A stretch of 64,000 nt of DNA from Candidatus Yanofskybacteria bacterium (GTDB lineage Bacteria > Patescibacteriota > Minisyncoccia > 2-02-FULL-40-12 > GWA2-44-9), in NCBI GenBank assembly GCA_020852375.1, contig JADZAY010000009.1, forward strand, positions 12,690 to 76,689, given 5' to 3'. Of this stretch, positions 3,023 through 45,663 are shown one piece after another. Positions within the stretch are counted from its first letter, which is position 1; each line of letters opens with the position of its first letter. The position numbers and the translations under genes are program-made. The notes under the pieces are model-generated. The model did no database searches. It was not told the DNA's origin and saw only the letters and a list, made by a program, of their open reading frames with translations.

Positions 3023-3074
3023 CAAATGATCTTCGGAATGCCGTTTGGCATTGTGAAGATCATCCGCAAGAGAT

Positions 3075-42322: not shown

Positions 42323-42402
42323 CACTTGGCCACTCCTTATTCTGCATGTATGAAGGAAGTGGCTGGCCAAGTGTCCTGAGCGCATAGGCGCGAAGGACTA
42401 CA
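42323..42402 (+). repeat. tRNA-trailer repeat family II, copy 1
   Basis: CACTTGGCCACTCCTTATTCTGCATGTATGAAGG...; homologous to 45226-45333 and 45576-45663 (minus strand). Confidence 0.9.
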
Positions 42403-42415
42403 GTGGTTGCGGTAT

Positions 42416-42496: not shown

Positions 42497-42871
42497 TTAG
42501 TTTTTTAGTCTCTTCCCCCGATAGTGAGCCGCTTCGGCGAGGAATCGTTCGTCATCTTTTGTGCTATGCCTGACGGCGTGGCAATTCGCACAGAGAAGAG
42601 TGCATTTCAGGATCTCTGCCCGGATGCTCTCCCAGCTCTTGTTCGCGACATTACCGAGAGTGAAGTCTTTCTTTTGTGGATCAAGATGATGGAATTGAAG
42701 GGCGGCCTGATGGCCCCTCCAGCCACAATCCACGCACTTTCCGCCGAGGATGCGTATGGCAGCCGCCTTGGTTCGATAGCGCCGGATCTTGGTGTTGCAG
42801 GCCCCGCATCTGGCGCGCATTTTCCCCTGGTAATCGTTGTACTCTTTGCCGCATAGTTTACAGATCGTCAT
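42497..42871 (-). CDS. HNH endonuclease-like protein
   Basis: GGKCVDCG...LQFHHLDPQKK...KCTLLCANCHAVRH; N-terminal zinc finger. Confidence 0.9.
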   Translation of the reverse strand: MTICKLCGKEYNDYQGKMRARCGACNTKIRRYRTKAAAIRILGGKCVDCGWRGHQAALQFHHLDPQKKDFTLGNVANKSWESIRAEILKCTLLCANCHAVRHSTKDDERFLAEAAHYRGKRLKN

Positions 42872-42945
42872 GCCTTGAGTATAGCAAAATGCGCTCTACC
42901 AAGAGAGATTGCAGGGGGACGGATTTTGTGATACCGTATACACAT

Positions 42946-43223
42946 GCCGCGGTAGCTCAGTGGTAGAGCGCAGCCCTAAATCTTTGGGGCTTTCCGCAGG
43001 AATGCGGATTGAGAAATCGGGTGAATTCGGGGGAACTCCGGAACGGTCTGGACAATCCCGAGCCGAGCTCCGTGGGGTATCCAAAACGGAGAAGGTGTAG
43101 AGACTAGCGGGTGAGCCCAACAATACTCCCGCACAAGCGCCCGACCTCCAGAACGGAGGATGATATAGTCCAATTCAGCTTCGGAAGAGGCTGGCGTCGG
43201 GGGTTCAATTCCCTCCCGCGGCA
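42946..43223 (+). tRNA. tRNA-Phe(GAA), interrupted (exons 42946-42977 and 43184-43223)
   Basis: Joined exons give CAGCC-CT-GAA-GA-GGCTG and a GCCGCGG/CCGCGGC acceptor. Confidence 0.93.
42978..43183 (+). ncRNA. Group I intron (206 nt, no ORF)
   Basis: U before the 5' splice site, terminal G, P1 AGCCCT/GGGGCT, P3 TCGGGTG/CGCCCGA, P7 AGAGACTA/GATATAGTC. Confidence 0.92.
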
Positions 43224-43270
43224 CAAAGTAAACTAAAACCGCCCCTCAGGGCGGTTTTAGTTTACTTTCC

Positions 43271-43411
43271 TGCTCGCGGCCGGGAATTGAAGGGCATCGA
43301 GCCGAGCGAACTGCTTCGCTCGGTGAGAGCCCGGGCTCCGGGGGAGCATCGAAGCGTCCGCCGAAGGCGGCTGCGAAGATGCGGAGGAGGAGAATTCCCT
43401 CCCGCGGCACA
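43271..43411 (+). repeat. tRNA-tail Y-shaped element, Phe copy A
   Basis: Inverted end ...GGGAATTGAA; right end AATTCCCTCCCGCGGCACA is the tRNA-Phe 3' end. Confidence 0.88.
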
Positions 43412-43462
43412 GAAGCAAAAGCCGACCCCATGTGGGGCCGGTTTTTGCTTTTACGTATCGTG

Positions 43463-43587
43463 GCGGGAGGGAATTGAACGCCGGAGCGATGCGGTATCAG
43501 CTGATATCGCCGCGAGGCGGTGGCCAGCCCGAGCGTCGCGACGGCGCCGCGAGAGGCGAGGCCAATGACTGACCCCTCCCGCGGCAC
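43463..43587 (+). repeat. tRNA-tail Y-shaped element, Phe copy B
   Basis: Exact inverted GCGGGAGGGAATTGAAC; right end CCCTCCCGCGGCAC; core closely similar to the Ala and Val copies. Confidence 0.92.
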
Positions 43588-43631
43588 CGGTACACAAAGC
43601 CCCCGAGAATCGGGGGCTTTGGTTTGGAGCA

Positions 43632-44048
43632 TTACTCGGTGGCAGCCTCTTCGGGTGCCGATTCCTCGGCCTCGACCGCTTTGGCGGCGACCGCCTCGGC
43701 GCGGGTCTTCTTGCGGATCTCCTTGGCGCTCTTCTCGCGGAGGTAGTACATCTTCGAGCGGCGGGTGCGGCCGGTCTTTACGACCTCAACCTTCTCGATG
43801 GAGGGGAGGCGGATGGGGTAGACCTTCTCGACGCCATATCCTCCGGCTGAGCGGCGAACGGTGATGGTGCCGCCGGCCTCGGTGCCATGCTTGCGGGCGA
43901 TGACGATACCCTCAAAAACGCTCGCCTTGCCCTTTTCGCCCTGCTTGAGCTTCTGGTGGACGCGAACGGTCATACCAACGGAAACACCCGTGAAGCGGTC
44001 TTCAGGGTTATGCTTTGCCGAGAATGCAGAAATGACGTGTTGAGACAT
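43632..44048 (-). CDS. rplS: 50S ribosomal protein L19
   Basis: FEGIVIAR, GVEKVYP, RRSKMYYLR. Confidence 0.96.
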   Translation of the reverse strand: MSQHVISAFSAKHNPEDRFTGVSVGMTVRVHQKLKQGEKGKASVFEGIVIARKHGTEAGGTITVRRSAGGYGVEKVYPIRLPSIEKVEVVKTGRTRRSKMYYLREKSAKEIRKKTRAEAVAAKAVEAEESAPEEAATE

Positions 44049-45190: not shown

Positions 45191-45225
45191 GGCGATGAGA
45201 AGGTGGTAAATACGTTTCTTGTGGC

Positions 45226-45333
45226 GGAATTATTGTAACTCTCCGCGCCTGCCTGCCGGTAGGCAGGCCCATGCGCTCGGGGCACTTGGCCAGCCACCCC
45301 CTTCATACATGCAGGATAAGGAATGGCTAAGTG
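45226..45333 (-). repeat. tRNA-trailer repeat family II, copy 2, with a 20-bp palindrome inserted at 45248-45267
   Basis: Hand alignment with copies 1 and 3. Confidence 0.9.
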
Positions 45334-45449: not shown

Positions 45450-45502
45450 ATTCGCTAACTGTATCAAATACAACATGCCAAATGGCATCTTGTATTTGAT
45501 AG

Positions 45503-45575: not shown

Positions 45576-45663
45576 GGAATTATTGTAGCCCCGCGAACCC
45601 ATGTTCTCGGGACACTTCGCCAGCCAACTCCTTCATACATACAGAATAAGGAGTGGCGAAGTG
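45576..45663 (-). repeat. tRNA-trailer repeat family II, copy 3
   Basis: CACTTCGCCA...TGGCGAAGTG, a compensatory variant of the stem. Confidence 0.9.

Follow-up and report, generated by a model that had tools for sequence, protein, structure and literature searches.

A probable mixed array of two tRNA-linked-repeat-type elements behind the tRNA-Phe gene of a Yanofskybacteria genome

The described system closest to the locus reported here is that of the transfer RNA (tRNA)-linked repeats (TLRs) of Escherichia coli, a term that takes in the 178-bp repeats of tyrT and tyrV with the RttR/rtT RNA, and rrA, rrB and rrF behind 5S ribosomal RNA (rRNA). According to passages of PMC8144298, the last 18-19 bp of a TLR copy the 3' end of the upstream gene, one to five TLRs stand at a locus and K-12 has 22 of them; those linked to tRNAs have no known function, and RrB, which lies between two terminators, is made by read-through and processing. 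TLRs entered the E. coli literature in 1978; no origin has been assigned to them since, nor a function to those linked to tRNAs. Here we analyse a window of 64,000 nt from a Candidatus Yanofskybacteria genome (contig JADZAY010000009.1; genome G000 below, 744 kb in 24 contigs, ~59% G+C, 100% complete by marker genes), in which the tRNA-Phe(GAA) gene is followed in order by hairpin 1, element A, hairpin 2, element B and hairpin 3. Our preferred reading, which we think probably right while leaving ample room for error, is that this stretch is a mixed array of two tRNA-linked-repeat-type elements of different subfamilies, which likely entered separately at tRNA-Phe.

The computed folds and the sequence bear out every part of the hairpin-A-hairpin-B-hairpin layout that the initial annotation of this DNA had placed behind tRNA-Phe (Table 1). 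On the tRNA strand, A and B each fold as a three-way junction, and the folds of the minus strand are weaker (-66.3 vs -74.8 kcal/mol for A, -61.6 vs -72.8 kcal/mol for B). The closing helix, P1, pairs the 5' arm with a 3' direct copy of the tRNA-Phe tail that runs from the 3' half of the T-loop to the discriminator; because the arm is antisense to the tail and pairs with the tail copy, P1 imitates the stacked T-stem and acceptor helix of a tRNA. A short 3' overhang is predicted on P1, CACA in A and ACC in B. Both elements carry Phe-specific ends, as had been claimed, with arms complementary to the tail: measured as TLR-type tail copies, A matches at 19/19 positions and B over 14 contiguous nt after a 7-nt insertion, owing to which the ungapped identity of B's copy to the tail is only 9/18. 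The three hairpins, which are terminator-like and set the units apart, are unlike in sequence and have a common design of A-rich 5' side, G+C core and T-rich 3' side (z -5 to -9). From the end of the array to the stop codon of the minus-strand gene rplS, the gap is 9 nt.

The units are ~125-140 nt in size and non-coding. Neither of the two open reading frames (ORFs) that overlap the array (128 and 93 amino acids, aa) matches a Pfam family at E <= 0.01. At gathering thresholds Rfam returns tRNAs and a group I intron alone, with no family for the array units, and at E <= 10 on 43150-43700 it returns 42 weak matches, none of them near its own family's threshold. No sigma-70-like promoter was found in 42850-43750, which fits read-through weakly.

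Units of this kind recur across the genome. At 9 of the 46 tRNA genes of G000 (45 from ARAGORN, plus tRNA-Phe), an exact tail copy of at least 15 nt is located 150-169 nt downstream, and a sequence profile built from 13 copies matches 23 places. We used 17 G000 copies, element B among them, and a hand-drawn structure (P1 to P6) to build a covariance model, R1. This structure leaves 84.8% of cells paired, compared with at most 45% with slid partners, and shows both-sided changes at 27 of 39 pairs, the observed values being reached by 0 of 500 shuffles; G-U pairs sit on the tRNA strand. R1 gives 20 matches in G000, all on the tRNA strand where a tRNA is adjacent, and matches 46 of the 61 genomes of an order sample (by family, 27/36 in f1, 3/8 in f2, 8/8 in f3 and 7/8 in f4); the element counts in G000 are lower bounds, since some copies are cut by contig ends. 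B scores 106.1 bits (E 1.4e-25), partly by construction, as B is in the model. A, a distant member of the family, reaches 23.5 bits (E 1.2e-5) when 451 nt are searched with the filters switched off, and it escapes the search of the whole genome. The arrangement of arm, tail copy and hairpin that marks the family is present in both A and B, on the tRNA strand. No description of the repeat family in Candidate Phyla Radiation (CPR) bacteria was found in a literature search that covered few subscription journals.

Copies of the family vary in completeness. Contig breaks fall within elements at the end of C15 and at the starts of C19 and C24, and the C15 end and C19 start overlap, linking tRNA-Ser(GGA) to its element. 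Truncated copies that keep the 5' part only stand behind tRNA-Gln(CUG) (C16), tRNA-Ser(GCU) (C8) and tRNA-Arg(CCG) (C8), and an enlarged variant of ~190 nt stands behind tRNA-Arg(GCG) (G000:C9:12100-12450). These truncated and enlarged copies show decay and size variation within the family.

Comparison of the cores shows that A and B are not duplicates of each other and places them in different subfamilies. A gapped global alignment of the two cores has 66 of 101 positions identical (65%), which is barely more than 200 shuffles give (mean 57%, maximum 63%). Nearest to B are the cores of G000 Met2 (74/88, or 64/68 without the hypervariable P3 hairpin) and Leu-CAG (73/88), with Val, Ala-GGC and copies in other genera as further near relatives; the hosts of the nearest cores include Met, Leu, Val and Gln. 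B belongs to an Ala/Val/Met-type subfamily, in agreement with the Ala/Val type first ascribed to it. A belongs to a rarer subfamily with a conserved AACUGCUU loop, of which there are five copies on four host tRNAs, with arms that match the host each time: Phe (G000, G003), an intron-bearing tRNA-Met (G005), Pro-CGG (G089) and Pro-UGG (G060), the last three genomes belonging to other genera than G000, and G089 and G060 to other families as well. The P4 pair covaries among these copies (CUCC/GGAG vs CUCU/AGAG), and the spread of the subfamily is known at BLAST depth, as 4 of 105 genomes plus G005. The earlier description of A as a Ser type had to be abandoned: only the GGGC/GCCC helix is common to A and the Ser(CGA) copy, and R1 gives the latter 106.8 bits to A's 23.5. 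The tRNA-Met of G005 carries a group I intron and has its A-type element behind it, like the tRNA-Phe of G000.

Tandem duplication followed by divergence, through unequal crossing-over between tRNA-tail repeats, is a rival origin that we find hardly credible for this array. Duplication products do seem to occur in the family: uniform arrays of two identical units, the outcome that would be expected from unequal crossing-over between repeats, stand behind tRNA-Gln in G099 and tRNA-Val in G082, and at tRNA-Gly(CCC) of G000 a full unit is followed by a truncated copy of that unit. At tRNA-Phe, however, the core identity set beside its shuffles, the R1 scores of the two elements, the closer relatives that A and B each have behind other tRNAs in other genomes, and the presence of A alone in G003 all argue against this origin and uphold the original judgement that the array is no simple tandem duplication. 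A second mixed array, with both tail copies perfect, stands behind tRNA-Trp of G033; on the core tree its distal unit groups with the Trp unit of G003 and the His unit of G000 (98/97 support).

The core tree comprises 38 cores over 93 columns, with arms and repeats excluded. Host labels require 25 changes on it (minimum 16; shuffled mean 29.9, with 0 of 500 shuffles as low) and are only mildly clustered. Genome labels are not clustered (19 changes, where shuffles average 17.1), and this speaks against cores simply being homogenised inside each genome. Orthologous pairs of G000 and G003 group together for Lys, Asn and Gly-UCC. Other groupings cross hosts: G000 Ser(CGA) and G003 Met are sisters (support 99/93) with 85/88 identical positions and the same P3 hairpin, G003 Gln falls with Asn, and G000 His is joined to G033 Trp. 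Unlike cores also occur at one and the same tRNA in these sister species (48/85 for Ser(CGA), 53/89 for Gly(CCC)); G000 and G003 share some occupied tRNAs and differ at many, each having elements at tRNAs that are empty in the other. The annotation from which we started had expected cores to be shared across tRNAs rather than to sort by host, and this expectation held, with A-type cores on Phe, Met, Pro(CGG) and Pro(UGG) and with the Ser(CGA)/Met pair. The family is widespread in the order and patchy between sister species, and its cores cross tRNA hosts. The pattern is the one expected of an element that hops from one tRNA locus to another and comes to have arms suited to its new host.

The tRNA-Phe locus of the relatives allows the histories of A and B to be told apart. 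G003, a sister species and the closest relative compared (rplS 88% identical to G000), has no intron in tRNA-Phe, followed by hairpin 1, an A that is 91% identical to that of G000, the tail copy, a hairpin nearly identical to hairpin 2 of G000, and then rplS; it has no B. The more distant congener G010 (rplS 80% identical) has the intron, one hairpin, then rplS and no element, and G008 has an intron-less tRNA-Phe in another context, also with no element. Since G003 has A only and G010 neither, A and B were gained or lost separately. Among 62 family genomes, G000 and G003 alone have two occurrences of the tail 18-mer (<=2 mismatches) within 190 nt of each other, a lower bound on two-copy loci, as this search is blind to decayed repeats such as that of B.

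Public contigs show variation in array length at the locus, a feature that the initial annotation had proposed to compare among strains. The exact A+B form is present in contigs of four runs of one wastewater study (one contig, for example, covers 43267-43759 with no difference); these runs may include the source sample and are not independent proof. Three of the four runs also contain a ~90%-identical form with no intron and with hairpin 2 ending as in G003, and a joint that skips B is seen in two of the three runs that hold this A-only form. The two forms occur side by side in these runs, and contigs of the four runs, which drop rare variants, hold no near-identical variant without A or without B. 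The proposal of two independent insertions accordingly stands in part: separate histories are borne out by G003 and G010, and the claim that each element was given its Phe ends at insertion is left as a deduction, in that we infer acquisition at insertion from the cross-host identity of cores.

The hairpins may form families that travel with the elements. An apex of the form ATGCC-N4-GGCAT occurs 9 times in G000, 6 of them within 35 nt of an element, at five tRNA loci; in five of these six cases the motif precedes the arm, whereas in the remaining one it belongs to the repeated hairpin that follows the tRNA-Tyr unit. (Within the window, apex sites lie at 3039-3052 and 45476-45489.) At tRNA-Ser(CGA), the entire block of hairpin, spacer, arm and core differs between G000 and G003, while tRNA and downstream gene are orthologous. 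A hairpin of its own thus probably forms the start of the unit, and entry probably takes place beside the tRNA. Because the repeat of B is decayed and that of A perfect, and because the G033 Trp case points likewise, we lean slightly toward B being older, A newer, and B having been lost in G003. A second repeated module, a long imperfect hairpin ACTTGGCCACTCC...GGCTGGCCAAGTG plus ~40 nt, fills tRNA-to-tRNA spacers; in the window it lies at 42324-42415, ~45222-45330 (-) and ~45576-45660 (-), and it follows the Met2 element of G003 and, at the Val(UAC) and Ile(UAU) elements, their tail copies.

Arms vary with the host tRNA, and their pairing with the tail of their own tRNA goes beyond chance, as runs average 9.1 nt in 29 copies compared with 5.4 nt in 774 non-cognate pairings. 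Where tail copies have decayed, the arm fits the real tRNA tail better than its own copy in 8 of 10 cases, including B (13 vs 9). Either the tail copy is dispensable after insertion, or the tRNA end itself is the real partner of the arm. The latter would suit resident small-RNA genes, that is, co-transcribed RNAs under selection as mimic, decoy or regulator of the tRNA 3' end or its processing, with arrays formed by recruiting paralogues. We consider this doubtful as a full account, though not negligible. The strong conservation of sequence and structure and the restriction of G-U pairs to one strand speak for it, as does a closing helix that would imitate an acceptor/T minihelix with an ACC- or ACA-type overhang; E. 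coli RrB, moreover, is transcribed and processed and binds Hfq and CsrA (passages of PMC8144298). Selected genes of this sort, however, sit poorly with patchy presence between species whose rplS is 88% identical, with truncated and decayed copies, and with unlike cores at the same tRNA in sister species, and the 15 of 61 related genomes without a match make an essential role unlikely. Mobility does not contradict the small-RNA reading, and both may hold. Should the units prove to be processed RNAs, they would form an unrecognised class of tRNA-operon by-products in ultra-small bacteria.

The limits of the repeats are informative about how a unit might be joined to its tRNA. The left limit is fixed in the T-loop, and the right limit varies from 14 to 62 nt and may take in a whole hairpin, as in the repeats of Tyr (G000), Asp (G003) and Pro-UGG (G060); a homology- or template-guided join therefore fits better than a cut at a fixed site. 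Some tail copies have CCA where the gene has none (Lys in G000 and G003, Ser(CGA) in G003).

One template-guided route would be a retroelement-type cycle, in which the element RNA is copied by one of the genome's reverse transcriptases, the arm acts like a primer-binding site and the tRNA tail is copied into each insertion. Retroviral copying of a tRNA primer stops near position 58, and repeat and arm both start in the T-loop near that position; the added CCA and the four reverse transcriptases of G000 would also suit such a cycle. We nevertheless judge it very unlikely. Reverse transcriptases do not track the family, being found in 33 of 46 genomes with elements and 12 of 15 without, and G003 (15 elements), G001, G033 and G032 have 8-15 elements and no RVT_1 match. 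Additionally, several repeats continue into the hairpin behind the tRNA gene, so that DNA or precursor was copied and not mature tRNA, and most arms stop short of the tRNA 3' terminus.

For the preferred reading of separately entered elements we propose a mechanism in which a gene-less unit would be moved in trans and integrate at the segment of a tRNA gene from T-loop to 3' end, duplicating this segment so that the tRNA stays intact, with the arm being matched to each new target. The substrate may be a trans-mobilised folded single strand in which P1 mimics the target, and our best guess for the enzyme is a host recombinase, or a replication-repair route, acting on that folded strand. A unit with its own leading hairpin would enter beside the tRNA, B first and A later, and transcription from the tRNA promoter might run on through the array, whose units the enzymes that process tRNA ends would then release, by analogy with what is reported for E. 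coli RrB. A further step, which we offer tentatively and as less than probable, is that the 5' arm is a guide rewritten to mirror each new tRNA target; one folded core could then be aimed at any tRNA tail without an enzyme of its own, E. coli TLRs would be the same invention, and mixed arrays would record successive guided insertions next to the tRNA. If the arm is indeed a guide, it would constitute a new way of aiming DNA insertion at chosen sites.

Several observations weigh against this picture. The arms are not perfect mirrors despite long perfect repeats (a run of 8 for Tyr in G000 and of 11 for Asp in G003), and exact target copying at insertion is therefore not established. T-arms are often alike, so that some tRNA-to-tRNA hops may need little retargeting, and for some pairs apparent movement could instead reflect gene conversion of cores among resident copies, for example at the two Ser loci 760 nt apart in G033. 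There is no nameable enzyme: the one tyrosine recombinase of G000 (PF00589) is on another contig, its single large serine recombinase sits inside an island at tRNA-Asn, the genome has no TnpB (PF07282), IS110 (PF01548), Y1-transposase (PF01797) or Nop (TIGR-Tas) match, and reverse transcriptases show the lack of association given above. A scores weakly in R1 and its subfamily rests on five copies. As to the order of arrival, the last hairpin of G003 matches the middle hairpin of G000 and not hairpin 3, and simple parsimony across the three loci (G010, G003, G000) favours the view that B was gained late and at the distal end; such a gain contradicts tRNA-proximal entry, unless G003 lost B by imprecise deletion. 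The single hairpin of G010 resembles hairpins 1 and 2 alike, so that hairpin orthology speaks for neither order. Separately, a transposon of the insertion sequence (IS) or miniature inverted-repeat transposable element (MITE) type (IS200/IS605, IS110 or TnpB-linked) was considered and rejected, as the arms vary by host tRNA and PF07282, PF01548 and PF01797 have no match in G000.

Another way to view the units is as scars of integrase-driven islands, namely gene-less attachment-site debris, like cis-mobilisable elements (CIMEs) or tycheposons, left when larger elements were successively integrated and deleted at tRNA-Phe. The repeat does span T-loop to tRNA end, which Williams is said to have described in 2002 as the classical crossover segment of tRNA-integrating elements, and two G000 copies are parted from their tRNA by cargo, over 0.9 kb at tRNA-Gln(UUG) and 7 kb at tRNA-Asn, each far copy being preceded by a decayed tRNA tail and a hairpin. 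Debris, however, would not keep a conserved fold with compensatory changes across four families, the antisense arm is foreign to ordinary attL or attR sites, the genome has ~20 occupied tRNA loci in 744 kb but just one tyrosine recombinase, which is not adjacent, and the array-overlapping ORFs have no Pfam match. We regard this origin as unlikely. The array itself contains partial-tRNA repeats and no integrase or cargo; it is the two other copies of the family that lie beyond cargo.

At one of these two (G000:C19:9215-16660), an element with tRNA-Asn ends lies 7.2 kb from tRNA-Asn and follows a decayed tRNA-like tail and a hairpin; the gap holds a serine recombinase (541-aa frame, PF00239, E 1e-25), and it seems that tRNA-Asn and its element were parted by the entry of an island. 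At the other (G000:C5:13030-14260), tRNA-Gln(UUG) is followed by a 5'-truncated second tRNA-Gln and a ~0.8-kb ORF, beyond which a short remnant of the tail and a hairpin lead up to the element, whose ends are of Gln type. Similarly to the latter, a partial tRNA-Pro precedes an element at G000:C5:64580-64970.

The tRNA-Phe(GAA) gene is not called by ARAGORN, because it holds a 206-nt group I intron. The match to RF00028 spans 42968-43193 with 72.2 bits (gathering score 50), and public contigs hold an intron-less tRNA-Phe in which exactly the intron is skipped. Between tRNA-Val(GAC) and the intron-bearing tRNA-Phe lies a 124-aa ORF (42497-42871, -) with a weak HNH-endonuclease match (E 0.0027, under the Pfam cut-off). 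In G010, where the intron is present, the upstream sequence resembles the start of this ORF; G003 and G008 are without intron and without ORF, and in them tRNA-Val abuts tRNA-Phe. The ORF looks like a free-standing homing endonuclease that travels with the group I intron. Elsewhere, the region around tRNA-Ser(UGA) (1-2900) is far more A+T-rich than the remaining window, and behind this tRNA is a T-arm-like fragment (GGGATTCGAACC) with no recognisable element core.

Table 1. Features of the tRNA-Phe locus in window coordinates (DR, direct repeat).
Feature	Position	Strand	Basis or remark
tRNA-Phe(GAA)	42946-43223	+	read from sequence; intron-split between U33 and G34
tRNA-Phe 5' exon (acceptor 5' strand to U33)	42946-42977	+	end set by intron-less joint 42977->43184 (contigs, runs X1-X3) and intron-less tRNA-Phe of G003, G008
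Group I intron in the anticodon loop	42978-43183	+	Rfam RF00028; limits from 206-nt skip in intron-less form
tRNA-Phe 3' exon (anticodon GAA to discriminator A)	43184-43223	+	sequence; G003; intron-less contigs
DR0, tRNA tail (T-loop 3' half, T-stem 3' strand, acceptor 3' strand, discriminator, CA)	43207-43225	+	exact 19-nt repeat recurs behind element A; 18-mer pattern matches
Hairpin 1, terminator-like, 19 bp	43226-43268	+	fold -29.5 kcal/mol, z -9.2
Element A	43273-43411	+	fold -74.8 kcal/mol, z -3.6
Element A 5' arm, antisense to tRNA-Phe tail	43273-43288	+	minimum-energy fold: pairs with 43393-43408, 13 pairs, 2-nt internal loop
Element A core (GAA junction, P2/P3 hairpin with AACUGCUU loop, P4, distal hairpin), rare subfamily	43289-43392	+	R1 23.5 bits, helix order same
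DR1, exact 19-nt copy of tail 43207-43225, 3' strand of A's closing helix	43393-43411	+	sequence
Hairpin 2	~43413-43450	+	fold z -5.6
Element B	43460-43588	+	fold -72.8 kcal/mol, z -4.4
Element B 5' arm, antisense to tRNA-Phe tail	43460-43475	+	13-nt perfect run vs real tRNA tail, 9 vs own decayed copy
Element B core (Ala/Val/Met-type three-way junction) with AAT and 7-nt insertion before DR2	43476-43573	+	R1 106.1 bits over 43466-43575
DR2, 14-nt copy of tRNA-Phe tail, then C	43574-43587	+	sequence
Hairpin 3, abuts rplS stop codon	~43592-43623	+	fold z -5.0
rplS (Ribosomal_L19, PF01245, E 1.4e-28), stop codon	43632-43634	-	Pfam

In bacteria, group II introns of class C insert directly downstream of intrinsic terminators. 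The units described here resemble them in standing a few bases behind a terminator hairpin and in a choice of site that goes partly by base pairing; they differ in being only 125-140 nt long, in having no group II intron match in Rfam and in a reverse transcriptase that does not track the family. With tRNA-integrating islands and phages and their remnants, an example being the tycheposons of Prochlorococcus (bioRxiv 10.1101/2020.12.28.424599), they share the duplication of a tRNA 3' segment so that the gene survives, the left repeat limit in the T-loop, and the repeated use of one tRNA that leads to arrays flanked by partial tRNA copies. Unlike such islands, they have no integrase or cargo in or beside the units, a conserved folded core, an antisense arm and a right repeat limit that varies.

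The initial annotation likened the growth of the array to integron cassette accretion, and we find the integron analogy a fair picture, at the level of analogy. The array can be compared with integron cassettes and their attC sites, and with folded single-strand integration of the CTX-phage type. In each case structure would count over plain sequence, the fold is strand-specific (here with G-T pairs on one strand), the stem rebuilds a target-like duplex, and units stack head to tail at one entry site. The differences are that no IntI-type integrase was identified (the IntI-specific insertion was not tested in the PF00589 protein), that the ends of the units stem from the T-loop (GAATYC) and lack R''/R' core sites, and that core sequence is conserved besides shape. 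An actual integron cassette array was rejected as a candidate, with a single PF00589 match on another contig, no cassette ORF matching Pfam and no attC core sites.

The E. coli TLRs differ from the present family in several respects. R1 gives only 8-11 bits (E 0.08-0.36) on four units of the tyrT locus, which is not significant, and in the other direction the RtT family gives no match at E <= 10 on 43150-43700. The tyrT array is uniform, whereas the tRNA-Phe array is mixed, and in the present family ~20 different tRNAs of a single tiny genome carry elements, whose occupancy changes from one sister species to the next. However, both stand directly behind a tRNA or rRNA gene whose 3' end is copied at the end of the unit, with one to five units per locus in E. 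coli by the account in PMC8144298. In K-12 (NC_000913, 1286700-1287540), the units behind tyrT/tyrV carry a 19-nt tail copy, and each tyrV unit additionally has an inverted 10-mer of the tRNA-Tyr tail ~90 nt before it, and arm and tail copy close a branched core in the fold; the passages of PMC8144298 drawn on here make no mention of this arm. 'GAGAAG' follows the arm in the tyrV units, as it does in some copies of the Patescibacteria family. The tRNA-Phe locus provides a natural series of empty site, one unit and two unlike units, in a lineage that uses this design often and shows turnover of it, and nearly identical cores with different host-matched arms make target finding, the origin of the arm and tRNA-side array growth testable. 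Thus, we conclude that E. coli TLRs and the Patescibacteria repeats, though not proven homologues, are of the same kind and design.

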